A stretch of 64,000 nt of DNA from a virus. The translations under genes were made by a program, and so were the position numbers. This document shows, one piece after another, positions 12,025-29,752 of the stretch; position 1 is the first letter of the stretch; each line of letters begins with the position of its first letter. The stretch covers positions 77,528-141,527 of the IMG/VR virus record IMGVR_UViG_3300028376_000003. The stretch is one strand, 5' to 3'. The notes under the pieces were generated by a model. That model had not been told where the DNA came from, did no database searches, and saw only the letters and a program-made list of their open reading frames with translations.

Positions 12025-12044
12025 CAAATAAATAAATAAATAAA

Positions 12045-12128
12045 ATGAATACTTTTACTAACATAGAATATTATTATGAAGAATCTGAACGAAAACGCTC
12101 GGCTAGTCTTTTGATGTCTATAATGTAA
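12045..12128 (+). CDS. Leader peptide 1 (MNTFTNIEYYYEESERKRSASLLMSIM)
   Basis: GAA TAT TAT TAT GAA GAA TCT GAA run upstream of a terminator and tRNA-Tyr/tRNA-Glu. Confidence 0.8.
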   Translation: MNTFTNIEYYYEESERKRSASLLMSIM

Positions 12129-12143
12129 ATTAAATTATAGTAT

Positions 12144-12181
12144 AAAAAAAACCCAGTCTAGTAATATAGACTGGGTTTTTT
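12144..12181 (+). terminator. Intrinsic terminator / attenuator 1
   Basis: ACCCAGTCTA-loop-TAGACTGGGT followed by a T tract. Confidence 0.85.
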
Positions 12182-12194
12182 GTTTTAAAAATAT

Positions 12195-12277
12195 GGGGGT
12201 AATATGGCACAGGTAGTCATGTCGGTCTGTAAAACCGATTCCGAAAGGTATTGTGGGTTCGAGTCCCACTACGCCCA
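12195..12277 (+). tRNA. tRNA-Tyr(GTA)
   Basis: tcggt-CTGTAAA-accga, long variable arm, T loop. Confidence 0.85.
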
Positions 12278-12287
12278 CTTAGTACAT

Positions 12288-12360
12288 GCTCCGTTCGTCT
12301 AGTGGACTAGGACCCCAGGCTTTCAACTTGGTAACGGGAGTTCAATTCTCCCACGGAGTA
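12288..12360 (+). tRNA. tRNA-Glu(TTC)
   Basis: ccagg-CTTTCAA-cttgg; acceptor stem pairs. Confidence 0.9.
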
Positions 12361-12442
12361 CTAGTTTTAATATTGTTTAAAATAGGATTATAATAATATA
12401 ATGCTTATATTTGCCTATTATTTAATTTTAAAAAGCTTTTAA

Positions 12443-12607
12443 ATGGAAAAAAACACAATACAAGATTTTAAGTGTGTATATGTTTATAGAACTGGTAAAA
12501 AAATACATGAATGTGTATTTAAAGCCTACAATGTTGAGCAAGCTAAGACACATTTTTCGTTTTTTTATCCGAAAAGGATATTGAAAGAAATTGAATTACA
12601 AAAATAA
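12443..12607 (+). CDS. Small hypothetical protein (54 aa)
   Basis: MEKNTIQDFKCVY...; TATATTTG promoter-like site upstream. Confidence 0.5.
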   Translation: MEKNTIQDFKCVYVYRTGKKIHECVFKAYNVEQAKTHFSFFYPKRILKEIELQK

Positions 12608-12613
12608 ATTATT

Positions 12614-12832
12614 ATGGTTTTAAAAATAGAGATAGAAGGAATTGGCGAATTCGACATAAAACATGATTTGTTACATCGAGGTAATCGACCAAGACTGAAA
12701 ACTTACCATAAAGGGATATTTAGAGAAGTATCTTTTAATAGTTTTGAAGACTATCTAAATCCTACCTATCAGAGAGGATTTGATTATGAAGGAACAGAAA
12801 TACAGATTAAAATTTTAGAAAATACAGATTAA
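12614..12832 (+). CDS. Hypothetical protein
   Basis: ORF packed behind the previous gene. Confidence 0.5.
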   Translation: MVLKIEIEGIGEFDIKHDLLHRGNRPRLKTYHKGIFREVSFNSFEDYLNPTYQRGFDYEGTEIQIKILENTD

Positions 12833-12879
12833 TTTAAGAGGGAGAGTAAACTTTTAATATATAGTGTAATATAACAATT

Positions 12880-12954
12880 ATGAGAACAATTAATAACATA
12901 GCAATAATAGCGATAGGCAAAGGGAAAACTCATTGGCTGGGAATTGTTATGTAA
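12880..12954 (+). CDS. Leader peptide 2 (MRTINNIAIIAIGKGKTHWLGIVM)
   Basis: ATA GCA ATA ATA GCG ATA GGC AAA GGG run; contains TGGCTGGG complementary to the terminator 5' arm. Confidence 0.85.
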   Translation: MRTINNIAIIAIGKGKTHWLGIVM

Positions 12955-12977
12955 TTAATTTAATTATAAATTATCAT

Positions 12978-13006
12978 AAACCCAGTCAGAAATGACTGGG
13001 TTTTTT
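12978..13006 (+). terminator. Intrinsic terminator / attenuator 2
   Basis: AAACCCAGTCA-GAAA-TGACTGGGTTT plus T tract. Confidence 0.9.
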
Positions 13007-13020
13007 ATTTTATTATAAAT

Positions 13021-13094
13021 TGGTATGTAGCTTAGATGGTAAAAGCACATGGCTTATATCCATGAGATAGTGGGTTCGATACCCATCATACCAA
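13021..13094 (+). tRNA. tRNA-Ile(TAT)
   Basis: catgg-CTTATAT-ccatg; acceptor tggtatg/catacca. Confidence 0.85.
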
Positions 13095-13102
13095 CAAAAT
13101 AA

Positions 13103-13176
13103 GCAGGTAACGCATAAGTGATGGTGCACTAGCCTTCCAAGCTAGAATAGAATCGGTTTGATCCCGATTACCTGCT
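13103..13176 (+). tRNA. tRNA-Gly(TCC)
   Basis: ctagc-CTTCCAA-gctag. Confidence 0.8.
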
Positions 13177-13187
13177 CGATATAAAAT

Positions 13188-13261
13188 GCAAATGTAGCTC
13201 AATTGGCTAGAGTGTCTGATTTCCATTCAGAAAGTTGTAGGTTCGAATCCTATCATTTGCT
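13188..13261 (+). tRNA. tRNA-Gly(TCC)
   Basis: tctga-TTTCCAT-tcaga; canonical D and T arms. Confidence 0.9.
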
Positions 13262-13268
13262 CATTAAT

Positions 13269-13346
13269 GGGGGATTAGCTCAGTCTGGTCGTAAGCGATA
13301 GCTTTGCAAGCTGTGTCATACATCGGTTCAAATCCGATATCCTCCA
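13269..13346 (+). tRNA. tRNA-Ala(TGC)
   Basis: atagc-TTTGCAA-gctgt; G3:U70 pair in gggggat/atcctcc. Confidence 0.88.
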
Positions 13347-13638
13347 CAGCTTAATTAAAAAAAACAATAATTATAGAAGATTTGAGTGCGAGATAGATAG
13401 AGAGAGGAGTAATTACTAAATTTGCATCAGATGAATTGGAGAAGTTGTCTAAAAATCATCAGGCTAGAAAATATCAAAGCTTCACTATAGATAGGTGAGT
13501 TGTTGATATTGTGGACATGTCACCGATTTCTAAGCTAACAAATTCAGTAGATGTGATAGTTTATGGTGGTGATTCATTAATGGAGATTTCTTAGAAACAT
13601 ATTAATAATATATATATAGAGAAAATGTACATATTATT

Positions 13639-14394
13639 ATGATTATAAGATTTAGAAGTAGAGGAGAAAAAGTTAAGGATTTACAAAACTTGTTAGGACT
13701 AAAACCTGATGGTATATTTGGTCCTAACACTTTGAAAGCTTTGAAGAATTTTCAAAGAGATAATGGATTAAGCGTAGATGGTATAGTTGGTCCTAATACT
13801 TGGTCTGTTTTAGTAAAAAACGATAAGAATAGAATAAGACCAATTTACGATGTTGATCTAAACGAAGAAGATTCTGTATCTGATCCAGAGTGTATGTTCT
13901 GTGTAGAAGATATTGAGGAAACACAACCTTTGTCCCCTAGTACAAGGGAACTTATAAACCTAATAGAATCTAGTGATATTACTAGGAATATAAAAAGGCT
14001 TGTTTTCCATTGTACTGCAACATCTCAAAAAGCTACTGTATCTGCCATTGTGAATTATTGGAAGAATACACTTGGGTGGCGTTCACCAGGTTATCATATA
14101 ATTGTTAGGCCAGATGGAACTTGGAATCAACTACTAGACTTTAACAGAGTCTCTAATGGTGTTCGTGGTATCAATTCTACTACTATAAATATATCATATA
14201 TTGGTGGTGTTGACCGAAATGGTAGAGCATTGGATAATAGAACTAAAAAGCAAAAGGATGTCTATGAAACCATTTATAGAGCTTTTAAGCATAAATTACC
14301 TAGAATAACATTTCATGGACATAATGAATTTTCATCAAAAGCATGTCCATCTTTTAATGTTAAAAATTGGATAAAGTCTTTAAGAGTAATTTAA
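13639..14394 (+). CDS. Endolysin: peptidoglycan-binding domain plus N-acetylmuramoyl-L-alanine amidase
   Basis: DGIFGPNT/DGIVGPNTW repeats; HCTA, GYH, GHNE..KACPSF zinc-amidase motifs. Confidence 0.9.
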   Translation: MIIRFRSRGEKVKDLQNLLGLKPDGIFGPNTLKALKNFQRDNGLSVDGIVGPNTWSVLVKNDKNRIRPIYDVDLNEEDSVSDPECMFCVEDIEETQPLSPSTRELINLIESSDITRNIKRLVFHCTATSQKATVSAIVNYWKNTLGWRSPGYHIIVRPDGTWNQLLDFNRVSNGVRGINSTTINISYIGGVDRNGRALDNRTKKQKDVYETIYRAFKHKLPRITFHGHNEFSSKACPSFNVKNWIKSLRVI

Positions 14395-14522
14395 TTAGTA
14401 TATATTTGCATAGTAAGAATTCTAAAAGAAAGAAAAATTATAATATTATTTTACTATATATCATGATGTTGCATGTTTTTAGATGAATTAACAACACTAA
14501 TCACTTAATAATACAAATCTAT

Positions 14523-14951
14523 ATGACCACAATTCAAACAAATAATATAATTAACTTTTATTTCAATATTAGCACTGAATGTGGTATTGATATATTACAT
14601 CTATCACCAAGCTATCTTAGAGAAAAGTGGATACTCCATATAGGAACTGATATTGAAAATAATAATATAACCAAAAGTGTTAAGTTGGATACTTGGACTA
14701 AAATATGGGGTGTTACTGATAAAAATACAACATCAATATATTATATAATTCTAGAATTAAATTCAGTTCCACTAAGGGAAGCTAATATAACGTCTGTAGT
14801 TAATAAAATTATTCCTTATATTGATGAAAATAAGATAAACAAAGAAGAATATAATGGTTTACACCCATCAATAAATAGTTGTAAGGATCAATGGATGATG
14901 AAGAAAGAAAACAAAAGATACTTAAATATTCAAATGTTATTGAATGACTGA
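14523..14951 (+). CDS. Hypothetical protein
   Basis: 142-aa ORF. Confidence 0.5.
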   Translation: MTTIQTNNIINFYFNISTECGIDILHLSPSYLREKWILHIGTDIENNNITKSVKLDTWTKIWGVTDKNTTSIYYIILELNSVPLREANITSVVNKIIPYIDENKINKEEYNGLHPSINSCKDQWMMKKENKRYLNIQMLLND

Positions 14952-14974
14952 TATTTATATATAAGAGAAAAACA

Positions 14975-15430
14975 ATGAAATTAAGAAAGACTATAGCAAC
15001 CACAATGAGAGGATATCTTAATGAGAATAATAGTAATGAAAGTCATTTTTTATCTGAAAGTGAAAAATATGGCTCTTATGAAGGTATTATTCATTCTGAT
15101 ATAGAAAAAGTCAAGAATTAGTTCTCAAAACGAGGTATTGACTACAATTCATATCTTAATCAAATTGAACTACCTGTAGCATTTTTAAACAATATAAATG
15201 TAGAATTAAAATATAGAGGAAAGGGATATGGTGATGAACTATATTTTGATTTTGAACAGAATTGTTATTATTATAACACTAAATGCATAATATTAGAAAG
15301 TGATAGTGGCGAATCACAGAAGAAAGGTTTTAATTTGGACAATTGGTATGAAATCTTAGACTATGAGATAATTGGGGAAGAAAGTGGTAATTCAATTATG
15401 AAAAAAAAATTAATTAGTTCACAACGATGA
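14975..15430 (+). pseudogene. GNAT-family acetyltransferase interrupted by an in-frame TAG
   Basis: One frame MKLRKTIATTMRGYLNE...KVKN*FSKRG...YRGKGYG; TAG at 15119-15121. Confidence 0.65.
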
Positions 15431-15491
15431 TGGTGATAATAGTGCTTTACTTAATTCTGATTATGAAATGATAATTATTTAAAAATAAATT

Positions 15492-15713
15492 ATGGGACTA
15501 TACGATACAGTAAAAGTACCTTGCCCTTCATGTGGTGAGAAGAAAGATTTTCAAAGTAAGAGTGGTGATGGTTTTTTAGAAGTAGTTGATTTAGAAAACT
15601 GCCCATATGATATACTAGTAGGCGTAAACAGACATTCACCCCATACTTGTAAGTGTGGAGAAATATTTAAAGTGGATTTAAATACTAGAAAAAGTGTAAA
15701 AACAGAAAAATAG
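15492..15713 (+). CDS. Small zinc-finger phage protein
   Basis: MGLYD..CPSCG...FQSK...CKCG. Confidence 0.6.
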   Translation: MGLYDTVKVPCPSCGEKKDFQSKSGDGFLEVVDLENCPYDILVGVNRHSPHTCKCGEIFKVDLNTRKSVKTEK

Positions 15714-15970
15714 ACTATGATAATGTCCCAAATATCTATTAAATAAGGGACTTTAAAAATTAGGTAATTTTATACATTGTTGTGCAGAGTAGGTTATTAA
15801 TTTAATTATGAGATGAGTAGTATTAATTATATAAAAAATACAACTTATTATCTGTTTGTAAGTATAAGTGTGTAAGTGCTACTTATGATAAACTTCTAAT
15901 ATCACAAACAATCAATTTTAATAAAAGCATATACTAGAAAATAGAAAATAAAAAATAATAAATTAAATAT

Positions 15971-17206
15971 ATGAATAACACATCAATTATAGATTCATTT
16001 ACTGAGCTTAAGTCAGACAAAATGATTAATAAAATAGAGATAATGGAAATCCTAGACTCTGTTTTTAGATTTGAGTTTAGAAAAAAATATGATACAGATG
16101 AAAACTTTGATATAATTCTAAACCCAGATAACGGAGATTTAGAAATATGGCAAAACAAAATCGTTGTACAAGATGGCGAGGTTGAAAACCACAATACTGA
16201 AATAGAAATTTCAGAAGTTCTTAAGGTGGAGTCAGATTTTGAAATAGGGGAAGAATATCCACAAGAATTCAAAATATCAGAATTAGGAAGAAGATCTATA
16301 TTAAGTTTAAGACAGAATCTAAAGGCTAGAATAAAAGACTACGAAAATAAATCAACAATAGAGAAGTTTGAAGATATGATTGGATATATTTTCAATGCCG
16401 AAGTCCATCACATAAAAAGAAATATGGTTATATTACTAGATGATGAGGGTATTGAAATTTGTTTACCAAAAGATAATCAGATACCTGGTGAGTTTTACAG
16501 AAAAGGTGATACAATATCATTTGTGGTAGAAGAAGCTGAAATTAGAAACAATAAGCCATACATTATTGCATCAAGAACATCAAGTAAGTTTCTAGAAAGA
16601 ATAATGGAACAAGAAATACCTGAAATATTCGATGGTCTAATAAATATAAAGAACATAGTTAGAGTACCTGGTATTAAAGCTAAGGTAGCAGTGGAAACAT
16701 ATGATGATAGAATTGATCCTGTTGGAACTTGTGTTGGTAGTAGAGGAAGTCGAATAATGGCAGTTACTAGAGAGCTAAATGGTGAGAGTATAGATATCAT
16801 AAGCTACACAAATAATATGGATTTATATATAACTAGGTCGTTAAAACCAGCCGTTGTTAAATTTATAAAGGTAGAAGATGGTAAAGCTGACGTTCATTTA
16901 AATGGTGAAGATATTGGTAAGGCTATTGGTAAGAAAGGTTCTAATATAAGATTAACTAGCTTACTTACTGGTCTAGAAATAAATCTTATAAATGATGAGC
17001 AAGCTACAGAGGAAGATATAGATCTTATGGAATTTTCTGATGAAGTTGATTTATGGGTAATAAATGAATTTAAAAAAGCTGGTATAGATACTGCTAAATC
17101 ATTACTATCTTATGGTTTTAGTGAACTTGTAAATATGACAGATTTAGAGGATGTGACTATTGAGAAGATAATAAAAATAATCAAACAAGAATTTGTTGAT
17201 AGTTAA
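15971..17206 (+). CDS. nusA: Transcription termination/antitermination factor NusA
   Basis: N-terminal domain, S1, KH domains (EIPEI, IDPVGTCVGSRGSRI, AIGKKGSNIRL). Confidence 0.95.
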   Translation: MNNTSIIDSFTELKSDKMINKIEIMEILDSVFRFEFRKKYDTDENFDIILNPDNGDLEIWQNKIVVQDGEVENHNTEIEISEVLKVESDFEIGEEYPQEFKISELGRRSILSLRQNLKARIKDYENKSTIEKFEDMIGYIFNAEVHHIKRNMVILLDDEGIEICLPKDNQIPGEFYRKGDTISFVVEEAEIRNNKPYIIASRTSSKFLERIMEQEIPEIFDGLINIKNIVRVPGIKAKVAVETYDDRIDPVGTCVGSRGSRIMAVTRELNGESIDIISYTNNMDLYITRSLKPAVVKFIKVEDGKADVHLNGEDIGKAIGKKGSNIRLTSLLTGLEINLINDEQATEEDIDLMEFSDEVDLWVINEFKKAGIDTAKSLLSYGFSELVNMTDLEDVTIEKIIKIIKQEFVDS

Positions 17207-17215
17207 AACAAAATA

Positions 17216-17443
17216 ATGTCAAATAGAAACTATAAAATAGATAAGGAAATCGAGGTAACACTTAAAGTTAAAGTAAAGATTAATTCTTGCAATGACTATA
17301 ATAGGTTGAACGAATTACAAATAGAAAATAATGTATCTGATTTTAAAAATGATATTAAAGAACATCTGCTAGATAAGCTAAGAAATAGCTATCAAGAAGA
17401 AGTTACAATAGGTATTGATTTTTGGGATTATGAAGTAGATTAA
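17216..17443 (+). CDS. Hypothetical protein
   Basis: ORF in operon. Confidence 0.5.
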   Translation: MSNRNYKIDKEIEVTLKVKVKINSCNDYNRLNELQIENNVSDFKNDIKEHLLDKLRNSYQEEVTIGIDFWDYEVD

Positions 17444-17502
17444 TTAAATACCATAAAATACTTGTATAATATTTTTTATTTGTATATTTGTAAAAAAATA
17501 AT

Positions 17503-17772
17503 ATGAAAACTTTTAAGAAATCATTTATTATAATAGGACTTGGCGTACTTAACATACTACATGCTAGCCTTCATATATTTCAATTTGTTCAATCTTTTAT
17601 GCTTGTAAAGGCATCTATAGAACTACAAGACACATCAACAAATCACAGTGGTTTATTTTCAGATTTACTACACAGTCCATATTTTACAATAGTTTGGGCA
17701 TTAGTAGGCATCTTGACCTTATACATCGGTATCAAGGATTTTATTCATCATAAAAAATGTAAAAATGGGTAG
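17503..17772 (+). CDS. Hypothetical membrane protein
   Basis: Two hydrophobic segments, His-rich. Confidence 0.55.
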   Translation: MKTFKKSFIIIGLGVLNILHASLHIFQFVQSFMLVKASIELQDTSTNHSGLFSDLLHSPYFTIVWALVGILTLYIGIKDFIHHKKCKNG

Positions 17773-18670
17773 TTTTAATATAATATGTTCAATATCTAAT
17801 ACAGTCATAAGTGACGGCGATAGAGCAAGTATTCAGATATTAGTCCCTGGTGGAAGTGAAAATTTCAATTCACATAAGAACATAATTGTATCAGAAAGTG
17901 GTACACAAGAGTTCTTCTCACCATTTGGGTTTCCAATAAATGGTCGATATGATAGCTATGGAAGATTAAGACATATAGAAAATGACATAAATGTAGAAAT
18001 GTTAGAAAAATTCTTTAACATAAATATATATGAATTACTTAATCTAATACATTCTAGTAGTAGAACTTATGATGAAGAGGTTAAAAACACAGACATAATT
18101 GACAATTTGTTCATATCTTTTTTTAGAACAGAAGTCATTGACTACATAGACAATGGAAGCCTAGATATAAATATTGACAACCCCGAAGAATATACTAGAG
18201 GTGCTTACATAAAAAGTATTTTAGATGGTATTGATGATTATAACATAACAAACATATCAGAAAGAATATCATATATTGAAAGTATGGCAGAAGCTGATAT
18301 TACAGAAGAAATTTCGAAAGAGTTTTTTGATTTAATAAGAAAACAAACTACAAGAAAAAAGACATATATTCAATCATTATGGCAATATAATATGTTTGAA
18401 TTGCTACCAATTGATTTAATATTTAAAGACTATATAATTAAACAATATAATCTTATTTCAACGATGACAAATGAATTGAAAGTATTATTGAGACCAAGCT
18501 TATATGGATCACAAGAAGGTGATGATTTATATAGATACAAATTTAATAAAGAAATAAATAATCTAATCATTAATGATTTAGAATCAGAATCAGAATGGTT
18601 AGATGGTGAAGAAAAATCCATTATAAAGACACATAATCGATCTGTCAAACTAGACAAATTGTATTCATAG
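17765..18670 (+). CDS. Hypothetical phage protein
   Basis: MGSFN..CSISN and PINGRYDSYG motifs; C-terminal RSVKLDKL tag. Confidence 0.6.
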   Translation: MGSFNIICSISNTVISDGDRASIQILVPGGSENFNSHKNIIVSESGTQEFFSPFGFPINGRYDSYGRLRHIENDINVEMLEKFFNINIYELLNLIHSSSRTYDEEVKNTDIIDNLFISFFRTEVIDYIDNGSLDINIDNPEEYTRGAYIKSILDGIDDYNITNISERISYIESMAEADITEEISKEFFDLIRKQTTRKKTYIQSLWQYNMFELLPIDLIFKDYIIKQYNLISTMTNELKVLLRPSLYGSQEGDDLYRYKFNKEINNLIINDLESESEWLDGEEKSIIKTHNRSVKLDKLYS

Positions 18671-18934: not shown

Positions 18935-18950
18935 ATATATGTAATTAGTT

Positions 18951-19797: not shown

Positions 19798-19807
19798 TTA
19801 ATACACT

Positions 19808-20182: not shown

Positions 20183-20183
20183 T

Positions 20184-20641: not shown

Positions 20642-21313
20642 ATGGTAGAGTTATTACATTTTGATATAGAAACCACAAGTGAGTATGAAAACTTCGAATC
20701 ATTTAAGGAAAACGATGAGAGGGGATCAGCTTTATTTGAAGCCAAATGCAAAAAAATGAATTGGATAGAAAAGTGTGGGAGTATAGAGCAAGCATACATT
20801 GAAAATGGTGGGATAATATCAACATATGGTAAGATAATATGTATATCATTTGGATTTACCGTTAACGGAGAAAAAAGAATAAAATCGTTATACTCTGATA
20901 ATGAAAAGGATTTAGTCAATAAGTTCAATGAATCTCTAAAATACATAGAAAAAAAAGCTTTTCATTTATGTGGATTCAGGATAAAACATTTTGATATTCC
21001 TTGGATATTACACAAATTACATAAATATGGTATAGAGCCAGTTGATATGATATATGTATATGATAAGAAACCATGGGAGATGAGAGTAGCTGATATGTCT
21101 GATGATTGGAAAACTGGTTACTTATTATCACATACCTTTGATGAAATGTGTTATGAATTAGGTGTGGAATCCCCTAAGAATGAACTAGATGGTTCTAAAG
21201 TCCATAAAGCATACTGGTCTGGTAATTTAGATTCAGTTGTAAAATACTGCGAATCAGATGTTTCATCATCAATTGATGCTGGGATTAAACTATATAAACA
21301 TTATAAACATTAG
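20642..21313 (+). CDS. 3'-5' exonuclease (DnaQ/PolB-exo-like)
   Basis: FDIET, FDIPWI, YCESDV motifs. Confidence 0.85.
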   Translation: MVELLHFDIETTSEYENFESFKENDERGSALFEAKCKKMNWIEKCGSIEQAYIENGGIISTYGKIICISFGFTVNGEKRIKSLYSDNEKDLVNKFNESLKYIEKKAFHLCGFRIKHFDIPWILHKLHKYGIEPVDMIYVYDKKPWEMRVADMSDDWKTGYLLSHTFDEMCYELGVESPKNELDGSKVHKAYWSGNLDSVVKYCESDVSSSIDAGIKLYKHYKH

Positions 21314-21315
21314 AT

Positions 21316-21756
21316 ATGGGAGAAAAAATCACAAAAGGAGATTTATTTTTATTTACATCACATTATGATAATGGTCGTTCAGTCCATTACTATGGTTCAC
21401 TTGTAGAAATAATTGGTATTGCAAGTAATAGCATAATGATGGTAACTGGTGAAGGAGATTTAAACACTAAAGAGAAATTGCTTATAAGAATAATAAAGGA
21501 TAGTAACTTTAAAGACATTGATTCTAGTAAATTTTCTAAAACGCTTGTAAAAGATTTAAAAATTAAATTTAAATTTAATCTAGAAAATGATACCATTGAA
21601 GCAGATTCACATGATGTGCACAAGATAAATATAGACTATGGATTAGTTGAAATTGATAAAAAAATAGATAGGCTTTTAAAAGAGAAAACTCTTTACAATG
21701 ACTTTCATATCAGGACAAGAAAGCTAAGGAAATTATTAGATGATTCTAATGACTAG
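21316..21756 (+). CDS. Hypothetical protein
   Basis: C-terminal RTRKLRKLL tag. Confidence 0.55.
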   Translation: MGEKITKGDLFLFTSHYDNGRSVHYYGSLVEIIGIASNSIMMVTGEGDLNTKEKLLIRIIKDSNFKDIDSSKFSKTLVKDLKIKFKFNLENDTIEADSHDVHKINIDYGLVEIDKKIDRLLKEKTLYNDFHIRTRKLRKLLDDSND

Positions 21757-22304
21757 TTATTCTCAAATGGACTTATCTTAGAATCTATCAAAGACATCAA
21801 TTCATTGTGTGTTTGTGATAGATTCCTTGATACTAAACCATCTAAAATAAATCTAGTTTCTGTCACATACTTGCTGACAAATTTATCACTACCTTGTTCT
21901 AAATCTGAGCAATTGTGTAATCTATCAGCTAACTTTATAACAAGAGCATAACTAGTCATATTTAGCATTTTATCTAATAAATACTCTGATTTACCTACCT
22001 TCTCTATTTTGTTATTATCAGATGTAAGTTCTTCTACTATACTACTGACCATTTTTCCAAACTCTTCTTCTATATTACTAATAGTAACATCACAATCTTC
22101 AACAGTGTCGTGAAGTAATGCCGCAATACAAATTAGCTCCTTATTTTTACTCACCTTGACCTCCCTAACTATTTTGCTTACTGCAATTGGGTGCCATGCA
22201 TATTCTTTGCCAGAAAATTTTCTAAACTGTCCATCGTGTGCCTCTATCATAAATAATAGAGCCTTTCTTAGCTTTGTTTCTTTTTTAGTTTTCATAGTTG
22301 TCAT
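21753..22304 (-). CDS. HD-domain (p)ppGpp hydrolase-like protein (SpoT-HD/Mesh1 family)
   Basis: AHDGQFRK..EY..HP, AALLHDTVED, IKLADRLHN. Confidence 0.85.
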   Translation of the reverse strand: MTTMKTKKETKLRKALLFMIEAHDGQFRKFSGKEYAWHPIAVSKIVREVKVSKNKELICIAALLHDTVEDCDVTISNIEEEFGKMVSSIVEELTSDNNKIEKVGKSEYLLDKMLNMTSYALVIKLADRLHNCSDLEQGSDKFVSKYVTETRFILDGLVSRNLSQTHNELMSLIDSKISPFENN

Positions 22305-22391
22305 ATATATTAAACAAATATAACCTTTTTATTTGATATATACAACAGGGGAGATATATACTTTTATATATATAATAAAATATAAAAAATC

Positions 22392-22550: not shown

Positions 22551-22660
22551 ATTTAATAAAATATTTCATAAATACTTTAATAATTCGAAATATATTCAGT
22601 ATGTTTGTATCATATAATTTACTACAGATAATAGTATTATGAACAAACAAAGAAGTTATT

Positions 22661-24238
22661 ATGAAAAATCTTAAAAAATGGTTTAGAAATTTATCAATTA
22701 CTAACCTTGCTCACTACTACTGGCTAAAAATAAGAGAAGAATCAAAAGATAGACATGGTGAAAAATTATGTTATTGTGGACACACTAATAAATGTAGTTG
22801 TGATGACCCAGATAAACAAACTTTTAAAGATTCTGTAAAAAGAGGAACTATAATTATATTTGATAAAAAGAACGGTTGGAAAACTTCCAAAAAATAAATG
22901 TAATAAATATAAAACTATGGAATCTAATAAAAAAGAAACTAATGGGATATTGTCAGTAGTTCTAAATGTTTTCCTAGTAGCTACAGAAAATAGGCTAATA
23001 AGCTTCGCTATCAAAAATAAAGAATTAAGCCCTGAGCAGACTAGTTATATAGAGTCTGAATACGGCAAAATAGAATCTATCGAAGATGGTAGTAGTGGGT
23101 TCACTAAAACTGTTATATACATTTAATAAAATGAACTATGTTAATTAGAAAAATGTATACCTTGTACATAAATACAACACTTAGAACTGCATACTTTGGT
23201 AATCTAAAGTTTGGATGTAGAATAGGTGGTGCAAAGTTTGGTAAAGTAATTGATTGTAATTTATCTGATTTGAAACACAACCTAAGAATACTAGCAGAAG
23301 AAAATTATTTAATTAATAAACGCACGTATTAAAATGAAAATAACAAAAGGAACATTCAAATATACTGGTATTAACGATATAGATATTGACTTAGTCACAG
23401 ACAAGTGGAATCATTTATGGATGCTTGCTGAGTGGAAAGTAGACAATTCTTGGAAAATAGTCAAATATATTAGAAAAGACTCTCAAAATACCGAGATAAA
23501 GCTAACGATATCATGTGAACAAGCAACTGAACTTATTAAAAACCTTGGCTTAATTAATATTAATACTGGGTTTCAAAGTGGTTACTCTTGGAGGACTAAA
23601 AAGGATATGGTGTATTTAGAGAACTGGAGATTGGCAAGACATAAGAAATTACAGACCAAATTAATAACAAACAACTTTTAAATTATGAAAGATACATTTA
23701 GATACTTCATCAGAAAGAACTTCTCTGAGATTGGCGAAATAAGCAATGAGGATATTGATGAAATCGGAATTGAATTTCACAAGTACTTGGATAGCAAATT
23801 AAATGATGACCAAAAGGCTAAAATACTACCAAAAAGTGCGATTGATGTAATAATGAATAGCGACCACCCACTTAAAACAAACGGATTTGAGCCAGCATAT
23901 ATGCTACATTTTACACAATGGACAAAGGAACAAAGTGAATCGCAAGACTAGTTAAATGTTTTTATAAATTTTTTGGCTATTAGCTTCTATATTTACACAA
24001 TAATAATAATAAAACAATGAATAAAGACAATAATTCTATTATAGATACTAATGTACCTCTTTTTAAGTATATCGAGATTAAGGATTATGACAATGATAGT
24101 GTTGTTAAGCGACTAGATGTAAGCGATAAATCCGATAGGCGTATAGATACTATCGAAAGTGGGATTGATATAAACTTAAACCATGACCAATACTATACGT
24201 TTAGTCATGATAGTGAAGTTGAATTAGAACTCATATGA
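22661..24238 (+). CDS. Cluster of six small hypothetical ORFs (22661, ~22917, 23138, 23334, 23685, 24017)
   Basis: Tandem same-strand ORFs of ~60-115 aa with A-rich starts. Confidence 0.5.
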
Positions 24239-24267
24239 AAATAAATTTAAATCTTTTTAAAAAACAC

Positions 24268-24380
24268 TTGTGAGAAACAAATATTAGTTATATATTTGCA
24301 CAGAACCTAAAATAATTTAAACTTTTAGTAAAAAAAAGAATATAAATAACCAAAGGAAGAAATAAAATTTAATATATAAT
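24268..24380 (+). promoter_or_regulatory. Stacked host-type, putative middle and putative late promoters
   Basis: TATATTTG (~24291), AACTT-N16-TATAA (~24320-24345), TTAATATATA (~24369); homologous block at 28999-29090. Confidence 0.6.
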
Positions 24381-24384
24381 AGTG

Positions 24385-24504
24385 ATGAAAAATTTAAACC
24401 TAAATACAAATAGAAACTTAACGCTCAATGTGGTGAATATTATGTTATGTAATAGACCATCTAGGGGTTCTAGTGTATTTAATAAATTTCATCTTATGAC
24501 ATAG
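24385..24504 (+). CDS. Leader peptide 3 (MKNLNLNTNRNLTLNVVNIMLCNRPSRGSSVFNKFHLMT)
   Basis: Codons 3-24 use only N,L,T,R,V,I,M,C; contains TCTAGGGGTT antiterminator segment. Confidence 0.85.
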   Translation: MKNLNLNTNRNLTLNVVNIMLCNRPSRGSSVFNKFHLMT

Positions 24505-24526
24505 TGAAATAAAAAATACAAATAAC

Positions 24527-24563
24527 TAAAACCCCTAGAAATGAAAATTCTAGGGGTTTTTTT
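24527..24563 (+). terminator. Intrinsic terminator / attenuator 3
   Basis: AAAACCCCTAGAA-loop-TTCTAGGGGTTTT plus T tract. Confidence 0.9.
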
Positions 24564-24570
24564 GTTTTAT

Positions 24571-24655
24571 GCTAGTGTGGTGGAATGGTAGACACGAGGG
24601 ATTCAAAATCCTTTAATCAGAAATGATTATATGAGTTCAAATCTCATCATTAGTA
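24571..24655 (+). tRNA. tRNA-Leu(CAA)
   Basis: aggga-TTCAAAA-tcctt; long variable arm. Confidence 0.85.
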
Positions 24656-24667
24656 CATATATTACAA

Positions 24668-24741
24668 TCCTCGTTAGCTCAGTGGTCAGAAGCTCTCGTC
24701 TGTTAAACGAAAGGTCGGTGGTTCGAATCCACCACGAGGAG
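24668..24741 (+). tRNA. tRNA-Asn(GTT)
   Basis: tcgt-CTGTTAA-acga. Confidence 0.9.
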
Positions 24742-24749
24742 CAAATAAT

Positions 24750-24831
24750 CGGCATATACCAGCCCAAGCTGATACCTTGGAGAACTGTAGTTGGTAAGTT
24801 GAAAACGTAGGTTCGAGTCCTACTGTGCCGA
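24750..24831 (+). tRNA. Non-canonical tRNA-Ile(GAT)
   Basis: Acceptor cggcata/tgtgccg, anticodon arm ccaag-CTGATAC-cttgg, normal T arm; no D arm at the usual position. Confidence 0.7.
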
Positions 24832-24845
24832 CTTTTATGACACTT

Positions 24846-24930
24846 GTCGGAGTGGTGGAATGGCAGACACGCTGGGTTTAAGCTCCAGTGGGCAGTGATG
24901 TCCGTGAGGGTTCGAGTCCCTTCTCCGATA
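24846..24930 (+). tRNA. tRNA-Leu(TAA)
   Basis: ctggg-TTTAAGC-tccag; long variable arm. Confidence 0.85.
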
Positions 24931-24939
24931 CGAATAAAT

Positions 24940-25029
24940 GCCAGTGTGGTGAAATTGGATGAAACACGCTAGTCTTAGGAACTAGTACCCAAGAGGTAAA
25001 CATTGTCGGTTCGAGTCCGACCACTGGTA
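24940..25029 (+). tRNA. tRNA-Leu(TAG)
   Basis: ctagt-CTTAGGA-actag. Confidence 0.88.
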
Positions 25030-25039
25030 CAAAATAAAT

Positions 25040-25120
25040 GCCTTAGTAGTCCCGATTGTCTTCTAAACAATTAAGGGTAATTGGAAGCTGAAAATATAGG
25101 TTCGAGTCCTATCTAGGGTA
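25040..25120 (+). tRNA. Non-canonical tRNA-Arg(TCT)
   Basis: Acceptor gccttag/ctagggt, attgt-CTTCTAA-acaat, normal T arm; no D arm at the usual position. Confidence 0.7.
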
Positions 25121-25129
25121 CAAATAAAA

Positions 25130-25203
25130 AGTTCTGTAATTCAGGGGTTCAGAATGCTTCCCTTACAAGGAAGAAGTCGTTGGTTCGAATCCAACCAGAA
25201 CTA
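25130..25203 (+). tRNA. tRNA-Val(TAC)
   Basis: cttcc-CTTACAA-ggaag. Confidence 0.9.
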
Positions 25204-25209
25204 CAAAAT

Positions 25210-25281
25210 GTACCTATGACCGAGTGATTTAGGTAGGTGGCTGCAACCCATCGTACGGGGGTTTGAATCCCTCTAGGTACT
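25210..25281 (+). tRNA. tRNA-Cys(GCA)
   Basis: ggtgg-CTGCAAC-ccatc; U discriminator. Confidence 0.85.
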
Positions 25282-25288
25282 CTAATAT

Positions 25289-25361
25289 GCTGACATAGCT
25301 CAATTGGTAGAGCATTTGATTTGTAATCAAAAGGTTGTGGGTTCGAAGCCCTCTGTCAGCT
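25289..25361 (+). tRNA. tRNA-Thr(TGT)
   Basis: tttga-TTTGTAA-tcaaa. Confidence 0.9.
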
Positions 25362-25371
25362 CTGAAAAAAT

Positions 25372-25461
25372 GCACTAGTGGCGAAGTGGATGAAACGCAT
25401 CAGACTTAAAATCTGATACCCTTTGAGGTGAACAACGTGGGTTCAAATCCCACCTGGTGTA
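25372..25461 (+). tRNA. tRNA-Leu(TAA)
   Basis: tcaga-CTTAAAA-tctga; long variable arm. Confidence 0.88.
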
Positions 25462-25465
25462 CTAA

Positions 25466-25551
25466 ATCGCTATGAACAGATGTGGTAATTGTGCTTGGCT
25501 CATATCCAAGTTAGAGAAATCTTATTGTTGGTTCAAGTCCAACTAGCGGTA
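25466..25551 (+). tRNA. tRNA-Met(CAT) (elongator or Ile2) with long variable arm
   Basis: cttgg-CTCATAT-ccaag. Confidence 0.75.
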
Positions 25552-25552
25552 C

Positions 25553-25593
25553 AAAAAAAGAGGGGATATAATTAATTATATCCCCTCTTTTTT
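25553..25593. terminator. Bidirectional terminator closing tRNA array 3
   Basis: AAAAAAGAGGGGATATA / TATATCCCCTCTTTTTT inverted repeat between convergent units. Confidence 0.85.
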
Positions 25594-25605
25594 ATATTAT
25601 TTGTT

Positions 25606-26037
25606 TTATTTATTTTTAAGACTTTCTATATCATCCCTTATCTCATCTATATCATCTAAAGATATATCATCCAAATCTTTACCAGCATCACCAGTATTAT
25701 CTGTTACTACAGGAATAACATCTTCTATCCCTTTATCTATTTCCTTAGCAATGTAATCATCCCCTGCAATACTCTCTCTTTCTATTTGTAAACAGAACTG
25801 TGCTAATACTGCTAAATCATCATTTTTCTGTGCTAAATCGAATACTTTGCTATTAAGTTCATATTTTGACATACCTCTAAATTTCTTTCTAGTATAGTAG
25901 TCATAGAAATCTTGCTCTTCTCTAGACATAACATTAGATGGTTTTCTATCAATACCAAATATCTCTGTCTTTTTAGCTTTTGCAGTTACTGCTTCGCTCA
26001 CTTTTTTATTGTTAAAGTCTTTATATTTTTTTATCAT
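25606..26037 (-). CDS. Putative head-internal protein
   Basis: MIKKYKDFNNKKVSE N-terminus; late motif upstream. Confidence 0.5.
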   Translation of the reverse strand: MIKKYKDFNNKKVSEAVTAKAKKTEIFGIDRKPSNVMSREEQDFYDYYTRKKFRGMSKYELNSKVFDLAQKNDDLAVLAQFCLQIERESIAGDDYIAKEIDKGIEDVIPVVTDNTGDAGKDLDDISLDDIDEIRDDIESLKNK

Positions 26038-26055
26038 ACTCTTATATATTAATTT

Positions 26056-26691
26056 TTATTTACCATTTATTTCTTCAAACTCTTTTTCTAAATAAAGATA
26101 AATGTATTTTTTATACCTTTTCTTAATATCATCACTCACCGCCCTTGATATTCCCATCCATAGACCAATACTTTTTAATTTAGAAAATGCATCTTTTATA
26201 TCATTTGGATTTCTTTCCATTATTAGGTCTGTTATAGATTGTGAAAAAGCCATTACCTCATCTTTATTCGAAAAATAAGCCTTTTGATCTGAAATGTTTC
26301 CTAAAAATTCAAAATTTAAATCAGCTGGTCGTCTCAAACCTTGTTTTAAATGTATATTTTCATGCTTTAATACGTGGATAGCAAAACTGATATCATTACT
26401 CTCAAGATATCTTACATTATTAGCAAGAACCAATCTAGGCTTTTTAGTAACTGGGTTTAATAAACCAAATACTTTCATACCATTTGGTGGTGCATCTTCC
26501 CTCATTTTATCAGTTGGTAATTCATCATAGAATGTTCTGTAATAAACAACCTCTATATCATTTTTTGCACCAATTCTTTGTAATTCATCAACACTAATAC
26601 TCCACTCAGCCTCGACCTCTTTTATAAACTTTTCTAAATTATCAGACTTCCAATCTATTATTGCCTCATTAAACTTTTTTAAATGTTTCAT
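26056..26691 (-). CDS. Putative head-internal protein with HExxH motif
   Basis: MKHLKKFNE N-terminus; HENIH and EVMAFS (zincin-like). Confidence 0.55.
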   Translation of the reverse strand: MKHLKKFNEAIIDWKSDNLEKFIKEVEAEWSISVDELQRIGAKNDIEVVYYRTFYDELPTDKMREDAPPNGMKVFGLLNPVTKKPRLVLANNVRYLESNDISFAIHVLKHENIHLKQGLRRPADLNFEFLGNISDQKAYFSNKDEVMAFSQSITDLIMERNPNDIKDAFSKLKSIGLWMGISRAVSDDIKKRYKKYIYLYLEKEFEEINGK

Positions 26692-26707
26692 TATTATTCT
26701 TTTTTTT

Positions 26708-28933
26708 TTAGAAATTTTCGTTTAATGGAAAATTCTTTAGATAAATTTTATCATTGGCATTATCACCAAATATTAAATATTTAGAGTCATCACCCAATAT
26801 ATATTGATTCAATACTTTATTATGAGCTTCCTCTGGGATAACATCACTAAAAAGTCTTATGTTAGTAACCTTCATATCAGATGCTAATATCTTAGGATTT
26901 TTATCAATATTATACTGAATAGGTTCTATGTCTTGTTTATTATAATACTCTTTTCTCAAAATTGTACTATTAAGCATTTTTGCATCATCTTCTATATCTA
27001 CATTTCTCTTATATATATAATTTTCAATATACCTTTGACGTTGGTTTAAATTTAGCACATAACAATACCAAGTATCTTCCTCTAATGCATCACTTTCCCC
27101 ATCATTTAACTCAAATATATATTCTTCTTCATTCATAGTAACTGTAATGCTATCATTCTTTAGACTAGACTTCCATCCTTTATTAATCCCATTGTCATAA
27201 ACGTCCATAAATTTATAAACTTCATCTTTTATGTAGTTATTTATACTAAACCAAACTTGTAATGATATGTTGTCAGATACATCAAGTATAGAATTAAAGT
27301 TCTTGTATTGAACTGCCAAACCATTATATTCTACTGTTGATAAATCATAACAATATTTAGATATTATGGTTGTTGAGTTTTCAATAAGTTCTTTATCAAC
27401 TTCAGAAAAATACTCAAGTCTAATAGGATCTCTAGATAAAGGTTGTTGTTCCTTCTTATTAGCAATTGACTTCTTATCTTGTTCTATCTCCTTTCCAAAT
27501 AGTTCATCAATAGTAGTATTCTTTGTTAACTCACTAATGCTATTAGAAATTTCTGGAATATCTGTCTGAACATTTGATTTTTGAGAATATTTTTTGAGAA
27601 TAAGTTTATAATAAACAGCCGCATTATTAAAATTTCTAAACTGTTGAGCATGGTCAACTTGATACATTCTATTAACTTGACAAAAATGTATAAAATCTTC
27701 TTTAGAAGGTCTTCTCTGGACACCAAACATTTCCTTAAATTGTTTCTTTGTTATATGTGCTTCCATTGAATCAAATAATCCTAAATCGAATATGTTCATC
27801 TTAATCTGTGAGTCTGGAAAATTATTACCATCAATAGATATTTTTAAATCTCCCTCACACACAACATTATATAATTGATATTCATTAAGTGTGTGGTCTT
27901 GACCATTGGCATCTGGATCAGTTGCATAATAAGTTACTTTATGTCCTAGTACTTGTTCAGAGTCTGTACTTAATTTTTCATATAGTTGAGTAGCTTGTGT
28001 TTGTTCATAAGGATTATATAACTGAGCCTTGTCTGTATCTGTCATTGGTTTAAATGCATCATTCTCACCTTCACAGTTGTTACCTGTTGTGTTTAAATTA
28101 TCATTCATTATATACTTACCTTCACTGTTTATATAGCCTATCTGGTTGGATTTACAACATTCTCTTATCCCAAATAGATTACTCTTTTTATAATCTTCCT
28201 TAACATTTTGAAAATCTCCTACTAAATTTATGTCTTGAAACCTAGACACTGATCCCGATTTGTTATCAATAAGATATTCTATTTCAAAGAAACGTATAGG
28301 GTTTATCCTTTTGGTTGTTATATTTTCTTTAGTCAATGGTTCCCATTCAGTCCAAGTTCTAGAGTTATCTTGTGAGAATCTATACTTTATACTTATGTCA
28401 TCTAAACTAGTTATATTAATGATTTGTATATCTTCTAATTTAAAAACTTTATATATGAAAGGTGCTTTTACTATCTTAGAATCACCTGGCTCTATATAAA
28501 ATGCTTGTTCACCATTGAATTGTATTTCTTGTCTATCTATAATACCTTCTAATTTATATTCTAGTATTCTTATACTACCTATTTCAGAAGTTCCCTTTCT
28601 CACCCATTTAATTTCAAGGTACATACTATCTAGTGTATCAACAACTGGGAAGTTGGTTATATTAATATTTAAGTCTAACCACTCAGACCATGTGTTACCA
28701 TCTCTGGAAACTCTATAATATTGTAAGAGAAATCTATCTTGTTTAAGACCTAAACTATCGTATGTAAATCTTTTGAACTTTTCCACATTATCTAACTTAT
28801 CAAAAGATAATATGTATTCATCATTGATAGAATTTAGATAAGGAGTTTCATCTTCAACACCAGTTGCCATCACGTCATATTCATCTGATATAGTTATTAT
28901 TCCTTTCTCAAAATCTGAGTTTATATTTACCAT
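26708..28933 (-). CDS. Virion protein, possibly gp14-like neck/head-closure domain with lectin-like C-terminus
   Basis: Central GHKVTYY...PSKEDFIHF..RMYQV pattern resembles T4 gp14 by eye; late motif upstream. Confidence 0.45.
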   Translation of the reverse strand: MVNINSDFEKGIITISDEYDVMATGVEDETPYLNSINDEYILSFDKLDNVEKFKRFTYDSLGLKQDRFLLQYYRVSRDGNTWSEWLDLNINITNFPVVDTLDSMYLEIKWVRKGTSEIGSIRILEYKLEGIIDRQEIQFNGEQAFYIEPGDSKIVKAPFIYKVFKLEDIQIINITSLDDISIKYRFSQDNSRTWTEWEPLTKENITTKRINPIRFFEIEYLIDNKSGSVSRFQDINLVGDFQNVKEDYKKSNLFGIRECCKSNQIGYINSEGKYIMNDNLNTTGNNCEGENDAFKPMTDTDKAQLYNPYEQTQATQLYEKLSTDSEQVLGHKVTYYATDPDANGQDHTLNEYQLYNVVCEGDLKISIDGNNFPDSQIKMNIFDLGLFDSMEAHITKKQFKEMFGVQRRPSKEDFIHFCQVNRMYQVDHAQQFRNFNNAAVYYKLILKKYSQKSNVQTDIPEISNSISELTKNTTIDELFGKEIEQDKKSIANKKEQQPLSRDPIRLEYFSEVDKELIENSTTIISKYCYDLSTVEYNGLAVQYKNFNSILDVSDNISLQVWFSINNYIKDEVYKFMDVYDNGINKGWKSSLKNDSITVTMNEEEYIFELNDGESDALEEDTWYCYVLNLNQRQRYIENYIYKRNVDIEDDAKMLNSTILRKEYYNKQDIEPIQYNIDKNPKILASDMKVTNIRLFSDVIPEEAHNKVLNQYILGDDSKYLIFGDNANDKIYLKNFPLNENF

Positions 28934-29093
28934 AACTCTATATATTAAAAAAGATTATTTTAATTTAAAAAAAACCTTGTATAAACCATTTATTTATATT
29001 ATATTTGCATAGAAATAATATAATTCTAAACTTTTATAAAAAAAAGTCTATAAATAACCATAGAGAGAAATAAAAGTTAATATATAAAACATA

Positions 29094-29198
29094 ATGAAAA
29101 ATTTAAACTTAAACATAGTAGTTAACCCTCAACCCCAAGTTGATATCGATCAGGATTCTGATACGAAAGGTGCTAACTATGTTTTAAATTTAAGTTGA
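29094..29198 (+). CDS. Leader peptide 4 (MKNLNLNIVVNPQPQVDIDQDSDTKGANYVLNLS)
   Basis: CCT CAA CCC CAA GTT GAT ATC GAT CAG GAT TCT GAT run upstream of Asp/Gln/Pro tRNAs. Confidence 0.85.
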   Translation: MKNLNLNIVVNPQPQVDIDQDSDTKGANYVLNLS

Positions 29199-29216
29199 TA
29201 TTTAAATAATAAAAAC

Positions 29217-29256
29217 AAAAACTCGGTTAGTCTTTTAGATTAACCGAGTTTTTTTT
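29217..29256 (+). terminator. Intrinsic terminator / attenuator 4
   Basis: AAAACTCGGTTAGTC-loop-GATTAACCGAGTTTT plus T tract. Confidence 0.9.
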
Positions 29257-29264
29257 GTTTATAT

Positions 29265-29337
29265 AGCTCTGAGGTCAAATGGTTAAGATGTACGTCTGTC
29301 TCACGTAACGGAGTGGGTTCGATTCCCATCAGAGCTG
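29265..29337 (+). tRNA. tRNA-Asp(GTC)
   Basis: tacgt-CTGTCTC-acgta. Confidence 0.88.
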
Positions 29338-29349
29338 CTAATATTAAAT

Positions 29350-29423
29350 TGCCCCATAGTGTAATTGGCTAACACATCTGGTTTTGGTCCAGAAGATTGC
29401 AGGTTCGAACCCTGCTGGGGTAA
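29350..29423 (+). tRNA. tRNA-Gln(TTG)
   Basis: tctgg-TTTTGGT-ccaga. Confidence 0.9.
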
Positions 29424-29432
29424 CAAGTTAAT

Positions 29433-29506
29433 CGAGAAGTGACTAAGGTTATAAGCACGGGTGCATTGGAGGCATCAGTTAGCAGGTTCGATTCCTGTCT
29501 TCTCGA
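29433..29506 (+). tRNA. tRNA-Pro(TGG)
   Basis: ggtgc-ATTGGAG-gcatc; weak D arm. Confidence 0.75.
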
Positions 29507-29518
29507 CAAATTTTTAAT

Positions 29519-29590
29519 AGTCCATTAGTGTAAAGGTTATCATTTCCGACTGTCTCTCGGAAGATAGGGGTTCGAATCCCCTATGGACTG
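29519..29590 (+). tRNA. tRNA-Asp(GTC)
   Basis: tccga-CTGTCTC-tcgga. Confidence 0.9.
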
Positions 29591-29596
29591 CAAAAA

Positions 29597-29670
29597 TGCT
29601 CTATAGTGTAATTGGTTAACACGTCTGGCTTTGGTCCAGGAGATTGTAGGTTCGAACCCTACTGGGGCAA
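29597..29670 (+). tRNA. tRNA-Gln(TTG)
   Basis: tctgg-CTTTGGT-ccagg. Confidence 0.9.
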
Positions 29671-29679
29671 CAAGTATAG

Positions 29680-29752
29680 CGAGGGTGTAGTGTAATCTGG
29701 TAACACACGATGTTTGGGACATCGAATTGCTGTTCGAATCGGACATCTTCGA
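29680..29752 (+). tRNA. tRNA-Pro(TGG)
   Basis: cgatg-TTTGGGA-catcg. Confidence 0.8.

Follow-up and report, generated by a model that had tools for sequence, protein, structure and literature searches.

Leader-peptide attenuation is a textbook mechanism which, to our knowledge, has been reported only for amino-acid biosynthesis genes and a few related genes. The enterobacterial attenuators of this kind include the multivalent leaders thrL (Thr/Ile) and that of ilvGMEDA (Ile/Leu/Val), and also trpL, hisL, leuL and pheL. In the trp leader, the terminator is the more stable of the alternative hairpins. In Escherichia coli, the pheST operon is attenuated via the Phe-rich leader pheM. Here we analyzed a stretch of 64,000 nucleotides (hereafter the window) of the IMG/VR virus record IMGVR_UViG_3300028376_000003, which makes up the end of a 141.5-kb contig and belongs to a fragment of one huge phage. 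In this window, four tRNA arrays each stand behind a short open reading frame (ORF) and an intrinsic terminator. On the basis of sequence comparisons and RNA folding, we consider it likely that these four units (L1 to L4) are ribosome-mediated, leader-peptide transcription attenuators which gate the tRNA genes and couple decoding speed to tRNA transcription.

The phage units share with the enterobacterial leaders a short translated ORF (translation is predicted in the phage) with clustered control codons, an intrinsic terminator ahead of the regulated genes and an antiterminator strand located just past the control codons. The folds of L1, L2 and L4 would add another of their traits, a hairpin acting as anti-antiterminator. 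Also, as in the trp leader, the terminator (about -16 kcal/mol) outweighs the antiterminator (about -11 kcal/mol). They differ from the enterobacterial systems in that the targets are tRNAs and not enzymes, the product thus feeding straight back on the sensed step: only tRNAs lie downstream of the four terminators, with no amino-acid biosynthesis enzyme or synthetase gene. A phage leader would furthermore sense up to eight amino acids, its synonymous codon choice tracks anticodons, and the module is phage-borne, repeated before each array and devoid of any Rfam leader match. With pheST/pheM, the units share the leader-peptide attenuation of a component of the translation apparatus, but the target there is a synthetase, a single amino acid is sensed and the setting is cellular. 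A possible attenuator in front of the tRNA-Phe genes of E. coli was looked for as well, and the upstream regions of pheV and pheU in strain K-12 contained neither a Phe-rich ORF nor a terminator.

T-box riboswitches likewise make read-through of an intrinsic terminator depend on the status of a tRNA, via a competing antiterminator, with codon-anticodon specificity. They differ in using one specifier triplet, in pairing RNA and tRNA directly without translation, and in their conserved Stem I and T-box motifs, whereas the phage units present an ORF, a frame-specific signal and no Rfam T-box match. Large tRNA sets are themselves a known feature of huge phages, with up to 67 tRNAs per genome, and all five genomes larger than 634 kb were placed in the Mahaphage clade, with hosts predicted to be Bacteroidetes (Al-Shayeb et al., 2020, PMC7162821). 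The records nearest to the window are three uncultured phage genomes, 634-642 kb long with 45-61 tRNAs each (Rfam matches). In its passages on tRNAs, this survey catalogues the genes and mentions neither their regulation nor leader-terminator units (Al-Shayeb et al., 2020). The attenuators retrieved in our full-text literature searches act on amino-acid, resistance and ribosomal genes, and none acts on tRNA genes, which agrees with the impression, given in an earlier sequence-only reading of this DNA (the original prediction), that leader attenuation of phage tRNA arrays is undescribed. In the simplest account, what is new here is the target, namely leader-peptide attenuation applied to tRNA genes, the mechanism itself being classical.

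In the window, ARAGORN detected 20 tRNA genes, each of them on the plus strand. Rfam added three others (13103-13176, 44 bits; 25040-25120, 39 bits; 29433-29506, 30 bits), and a permissive search gave a fourth at 24750-24831, with anticodon GAT and 27.3 bits for an Rfam cut-off of 29. The contig total is 24 tRNA genes, made up of one lone initiator-like tRNA-Met and four arrays, and the remainder of the 141.5-kb contig, outside the window, contained no tRNA. The four arrays, which account for 23 of the 24 genes, all stand behind a short ORF and a terminator; the tRNA-Met is the sole tRNA of the contig without them. The units have a common layout with a promoter-like motif, an ATG-initiated ORF of 24-39 codons, a GC-rich terminator hairpin with a T-run, and the tRNAs, the distances being 17-23 nt from stop codon to terminator and 11-18 nt from terminator to first tRNA. 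Fourteen terminator-like hairpins occur on the plus strand of the contig, four of which are the terminators of these units, and the hairpin scan of the contig revealed no further short ORF plus terminator ahead of same-strand genes. The original prediction had described four such units in the order leader ORF, intrinsic terminator and tRNAs; this order was present at all four arrays, and the coordinates, peptides and tRNA lists all proved correct, including, in array 3, the atypical Ile and Arg genes and, in array 4, the second Pro.

The leaders are enriched in the codons that their own arrays read. With background amino-acid frequencies taken from 88 long ORFs of the contig, and with P values corrected (Bonferroni) for the position of scanning windows whose sizes were picked after looking, the control run of L1 had 7 of 8 residues that were Glu or Tyr (P = 3.9e-5), that of L2 had 8 of 9 that were Ile, Ala or Gly (P = 8.8e-5), that of L3 had 22 of 22 from the specificities of array 3 (P = 1.5e-7), and that of L4 had 9 of 12 that were Asp, Gln or Pro (P = 2.4e-5). 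No residue other than N, L, T, R, V, I, M or C, the eight specificities of its array, occurs in the L3 run, and the four Ile codons of the L2 run are all ATA. All 16 amino-acid specificities of the 23 tRNAs of the arrays were found in their own leader, the 4 x 4 matrix of leader-by-array scores was diagonal, and L1, L2, L3 and L4 ranked 6th, 1st, 1st and 3rd, respectively, when the 765 short ORFs of the contig were scored against their arrays. Binomial scores over the whole ORF were weak for L1 and L4 (P about 0.02) because the control run is only a part of each ORF, and the window-based tests are the relevant ones for these two leaders. Thus, the claimed enrichment of each leader for its own array stands, every specificity being present and the control-run P values ranging from 1.5e-7 to 8.8e-5.

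The same association was found in related huge phages. We took all terminator-tRNA junctions of the three 634-642 kb genomes and of three IMG/VR relatives, and obtained 33 units, which together with the four of the window made 37 units in seven phage genomes. The matched segments of the closest record have about 75% DNA identity with the window. The IMG/VR relatives came from a 16-nt L3 pattern, which matched 35 IMG/VR loci of which only three were true relatives; a 741-amino-acid protein encoded next to L4 gave, as a query, three IMG/VR loci, all without tRNAs, and the NusA homologue described below gave no match to related loci. All 37 units have an ATG-initiated ORF of 16-39 codons, the other two frames holding 97 and 125 stops. 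The stop codon lies 17-33 nt (median 24) before the terminator, and the terminator 5-25 nt before the first tRNA in most units. Orthologues of L1 to L4 retain their control runs, and the other leaders follow their own arrays: six or seven Gln codons in a run ahead of three or four tRNA-Gln genes, leaders rich in His, Lys, Phe and Trp for Phe-His-Trp-Lys arrays, Ser/Arg runs for Arg-Ser arrays, an Ile/Met/Arg run for an Arg(TCT)-Ile(GAT)-Met array, an Ala/Ile/Val/Glu/Gly run before a Glu-Ala-Ile-Val-Gly-Glu array, and a Gln/Tyr run before a Tyr-Tyr-Gln array. The summed enrichment of leaders for their own arrays was 90.6, versus 18.2 ± 5.4 after permutation (maximum 46.7), so that the covariation proposed as a check in the original prediction was found with none of 100,000 permutations reaching the observed value. 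This result does not depend on any single leader family. Some arrays of relatives are interrupted by 1-2 kb with ORFs and then continue with more tRNAs without a new leader (locus L003, 11575-13959; locus L018, LR756504.1, 134207-135377).

The match extends to synonymous codons. Where arrays contained only Ile(TAT), 13 of the 17 leader Ile codons were ATA, and where they contained only Ile(GAT), ATT was used in 4 of 4 (Fisher P = 0.012). For Arg, the choice of AGR versus CGN tracked the anticodons TCT versus ACG/TCG perfectly (5/0 versus 0/5, P = 0.008). AGY Ser codons, considered as mismatches, were accounted for by Ser(GCT) genes that ARAGORN had missed; in relatives, this program misses Ser(GCT) and Ser(GGA) genes (locus L009, 2724-2911). 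Cognate codons were frame-specific, with a frequency of 0.35 in the ORF frame versus 0.15 and 0.11 in the alternative frames. Among the five aligned sequences of the L3 family, the control block did not vary, even at synonymous positions, both ends of the ORF varied, and both gaps in the control-codon part were 3 nt long; the 3' end of the ORF in the window differs by a 1-nt gap. Codon matching, frame specificity, the invariant control block and the 3-nt gaps argue for translation of the leaders and for sensing at the level of decoding. Most leaders start with the residues M-K/R/T-T/N-I/L-N, and in L4 these codons form the hairpin predicted to hide the antiterminator.

In each leader, a segment that follows the control run is complementary to the 5' arm of its own terminator, as the original prediction had proposed; L2 and L3 have a strong pairing, L4 a moderate one and L1 a weak one. 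Over the 37 units, the summed duplex energy between leaders and their own 5' arms was -398.6 kcal/mol, versus -274.8 ± 13.4 kcal/mol in permutations (0/100,000), with a mean of -10.8 kcal/mol for the antiterminator and -16.4 kcal/mol for the terminator hairpin. The L3 antiterminator has a 10-nt core identical to the terminator 3' arm. In the four orthologues of the L3 family the segment and both arms share the same two-base change, and the helix between the antiterminator strand (region 2) and the terminator 5' arm (region 3) has 10 pairs, 98% paired, with 2 compensatory pairs.

The alternative structures were folded using the transcript up to the terminator 5' arm and a 27-nt ribosome footprint placed at each codon, which replaced uninformative full-length equilibrium folds. 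In these models, the position of the ribosome sets the state of the switch: on the control codons it leaves the antiterminator free, and further downstream it occludes this strand. Capture of the 5' arm had a probability of 0.67 with the A site on control codons versus 0.30 further on, and was higher on control codons in 21 of 23 units. For L1, capture was 0.02 without ribosome, reached 0.3-0.5 only across codons 8-15 and then fell to about 0; for L2, it was 0.01 without ribosome, stayed at 0.7-0.9 as far as codon 14 and was then mostly zero, never exceeding 0.3. L4 was mixed, with 0.14 without ribosome, and L3 remained at 0.85 until the ribosome reached region 2. The folds of L1, L2 and L4 have a three-state logic, and an anti-antiterminator (the hairpin of regions 1 and 2) is predicted for these three leaders and not for L3, in which capture is 0.85 without ribosome. 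The L2 and L4 leaders are more structured than shuffled sequences (z = -4.0 and -3.9) because their N-terminal codons pair with region 2, the folding of L4 placing region 2 on these codons in the absence of a ribosome.

The attenuator reading given in the original prediction is thus backed by covariation, by the in-frame match at the codon level, by complementarity to the terminator arm and by folding, and the anatomy of the units, the covariation and the alternative pairings are seen in the sequences, their comparison and the folding models. From here on, we infer that the leaders are translated, that the terminators work and in which direction the units respond. Transcription would start at a promoter just upstream of the leader or, for L1, upstream of the initiator-like tRNA-Met, and a ribosome would translate the leader as RNA polymerase approaches the terminator. 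If the codons read by the array were decoded slowly, the ribosome would stall in the control run, where it would prevent the 5' part of the leader from folding and keep region 2 available for pairing with the terminator 5' arm; no terminator would then form, and the array would be transcribed. If decoding were fast, the ribosome would cover region 2 and reach the stop codon, 17-33 nt before the terminator, which would form and keep the array off. Untranslated L1, L2 and L4 transcripts would have region 2 hidden in a hairpin with control or N-terminal codons, so that termination would be their default. A leader with several amino acids would act as an OR gate over its array, and the circuit would be a negative feedback maintaining codon-specific decoding capacity. 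The phage thus probably makes a tRNA block only upon slow reading of the matching codons. Candidate triggers of stalling are the supply of AT-rich codons early in infection, amino-acid starvation and the cleavage of host tRNAs; a host anticodon nuclease as the trigger is a speculation.

Several observations weigh against this reading. The orthologous units are not independent and represent about ten leader families, and the permutation P overstates the number of independent events. In equilibrium folds with a ribosome mask at each codon, the complete terminator dominates almost everywhere, and the switch must therefore be kinetic; such dominance probably holds for classical attenuators too. 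Neither L1 nor L3 is more structured than shuffled sequences (z = -1.2). The L1 antiterminator is weak, its best simple duplex (-3.8 kcal/mol) ranking 17th of 23; a ribosome on the Asp codons of L4 already touches region 2 in the footprint model; and L3 presents no anti-antiterminator in the transcript folded up to the 5' arm. Also, the distance from region 2 to the stop codon is 20-35 nt in several units, where a ribosome parked at the stop would miss it, in which case termination might be ensured by timing or by the ribosome separating regions 2 and 3. Dominance of the terminator at equilibrium, the weak L1 antiterminator and the lack of a clear anti-antiterminator in L3 would all suit real, conserved units that obey another logic, be it a constitutive partial terminator or insulator, a translation-dependent timer blind to codons, or RNA processing or stability. 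We hold this to be unlikely, as a fixed insulator needs no ORF, no codons that track the array down to synonymous choice, and no segment within the ORF that covaries with the terminator arm.

Matching of codons to anticodons would also be expected if codon-like triplets paired directly with the anticodons of uncharged tRNAs, without translation, in the manner of a T-box. Such sensing is very improbable here, since a cmscan of the whole window at Rfam gathering thresholds returned tRNAs only, with no T-box and no amino-acid leader family (His, Thr, Leu, Trp and Phe leaders), while each unit possesses an open frame that begins with ATG and stops 17-33 nt short of the terminator, cognate triplets being enriched only in that frame. 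The two gaps of the L3-family control part are moreover both 3 nt long, and runs of up to 22 triplets are unlike a single specifier. Finally, the ORFs could be chance or unrelated small ORFs, the hairpins could end upstream transcripts, and the tRNAs could be transcribed from unrecognised promoters; the genome is AT-rich, and a sigma-70 consensus promoter scan was uninformative in such DNA (108 matches versus 127 expected). This explanation is hardly credible given control-run P values of 1e-7 to 1e-4 in each of the four units, permutation tests at 0/100,000, the conservation of the units across seven genomes with about 75% DNA identity in the closest record, and a gap of only 11-18 nt between terminator and tRNA.

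Considering leader-peptide attenuation as the preferred reading, the units likely form a modular, codon-resolved controller of tRNA supply in huge phages, in which every block would have a multivalent leader of its own to turn it on, shortfalls would be sensed array by array and exactly the missing tRNAs would be replaced, with AT-rich codon usage, host shut-off and host tRNA-cleaving defences as possible causes. It would be the first leader-peptide attenuation of tRNA genes. If true, it would constitute a direct feedback loop between the speed at which codons are read and the amount of matching tRNA, would explain how a phage carrying 20-60 tRNA genes keeps these under control, and would provide a testable link between phage tRNA arrays and the depletion or cleavage of host tRNAs. 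Such leaders would also offer small sensors, diversified by nature, of the speed at which individual codons of many amino acids are translated, and the control as a whole a natural readout of this speed. The array would be predictable from the leader sequence alone, a rule that can be tested in metagenomic data and in cell-free systems.

Coordinates of the four leader-terminator-tRNA units and of their upstream motifs (positions in the window)
Feature	Position	Strand	Remarks
Promoter-like motif TTAATATATA	11926-11935	+	16 nt upstream of tRNA-Met; presumed start of the tRNA-Met/L1/Tyr/Glu transcript
tRNA-Met(CAT), initiator-like	11952-12025	+	1:72 mismatch read by eye; directly upstream of L1
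Leader ORF L1	12045-12128	+	27 codons; control run EYYYEESE, codons 8-15 (12066-12089)
L1 antiterminator strand (region 2)	12101-12112	+	predicted pairing with 12147-12158 when the ribosome is on the control codons; weakest of the four
L1 intrinsic terminator	12146-12181	+	15-bp stem, hairpin about -20.8 kcal/mol, then T-run
Array 1: tRNA-Tyr(GTA), tRNA-Glu(TTC)	12195-12361	+	ARAGORN, Rfam
Promoter-like motif TTAATATATA	12854-12863	+	17 nt upstream of the L2 start codon
Leader ORF L2	12880-12954	+	24 codons; control run IAIIAIGKG, codons 7-15 (12898-12924)
L2 antiterminator strand	12934-12941	+	8 bp with 12981-12988; predicted to be buried in a leader hairpin without ribosome (z = -4.0)
L2 intrinsic terminator	12978-13003	+	hairpin scan
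Array 2: Ile(TAT), degenerate Gly(TCC) 13103-13176, Gly(TCC), Ala(TGC)	13021-13347	+	ARAGORN, Rfam
L3 upstream region	24291-24378	+	Bacteroidota-type -7 box (TAnnTTTG) at 24291; TTAATATATA at 24369-24378, 6 nt before the start codon
Leader ORF L3	24385-24504	+	39 codons; control run, codons 3-24 (24391-24456)
L3 antiterminator strand	24460-24471	+	duplex with 24528-24539, -17.3 kcal/mol
L3 intrinsic terminator	24528-24560	+	hairpin scan
Array 3, 11 tRNAs: Leu(CAA), Asn, Ile(GAT, atypical), Leu(TAA), Leu(TAG), Arg(TCT), Val, Cys, Thr, Leu(TAA), Met	24571-25552	+	
Strong bidirectional terminator ending array 3	25554-25593		
L4 upstream region	29000-29086	+	TAnnTTTG at 29000; TTAATATATA at 29077-29086
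Leader ORF L4	29094-29198	+	34 codons; control run PQPQVDIDQDSD, codons 12-23 (29127-29162)
L4 antiterminator strand	29172-29185	+	with 29218-29231, -11.2 kcal/mol
L4 intrinsic terminator	29217-29253	+	hairpin scan
Array 4: Asp, Gln, Pro (29433-29506, degenerate), Asp, Gln, Pro	29265-29753	+	tandem duplication

The tRNA genes themselves include atypical members, some of which ARAGORN misses or mislabels. In the Ile(GAT) gene of array 3, the D region measures 4 nt and the variable region 23 nt, the first Gly(TCC) of array 2 has acceptor mismatches, the tRNA-Met that ends array 3 (25466-25552) is 87 nt long, and one Pro(TGG) copy of array 4 (29433-29506) is degenerate. The anticodons TCT of the Arg tRNA at 25040-25120 and TGG of this first Pro were read by eye.

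The motif TTAATATATA precedes the start codons of L2, L3 and L4 by 6-17 nt, and its extended form is enriched in the window (11 matches versus 3.8 expected). L1 has no motif of its own and directly follows the tRNA-Met, an order also found in LR745206.1. A TAnnTTTG box, which we take to be the -7 promoter element of Bacteroidota, is located about 90 nt upstream of both L3 and L4, and no promoter motif was found between any of the four terminators and its first tRNA. The regions upstream of L3 and L4 (24260-24384 and 28970-29093) are paralogous, with the TAnnTTTG box, an A-rich spacer and TTAATATATA in the same order, and the first five residues of the two leaders are identical, which suggests that the whole cassette was duplicated and that its control run diverged afterwards. 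The promoter-like motif of the leaders also occurs on the minus strand at 28939-28953, about 5 nt upstream of the start codon (28933) of the minus-strand ORF of 741 amino acids; such proximity hints at phage mRNAs with very short or no 5' untranslated regions.

Pfam gave no match for most of the ORFs located between arrays. A NusA homologue (Pfam NusA_N, KH_5, KH_NusA_C) is encoded at 15971-17206 (+), between arrays 2 and 3, and a copy with 46% identity is present in LR756504.1 (304692-305927), about 2.6 kb upstream of a tRNA array. It was absent from 4 of the 5 relatives searched, which rules out phage NusA as a required partner of the attenuators; it could modulate pausing or termination. 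The protein encoded at 21753-22304 (-) has an HD_4/HD domain (E = 1.7e-16), presumably the type of hydrolase domain of RelA/SpoT enzymes, and is a possible candidate for an alarmone hydrolase. If true, such activity would matter in a phage that disturbs the charging of tRNAs. Also, an endolysin-like protein (PG_binding_1 and Amidase_2) is encoded at 13639-14394 (+) and a protein with a PolB-type 3'-5' exonuclease domain at 20642-21313 (+).

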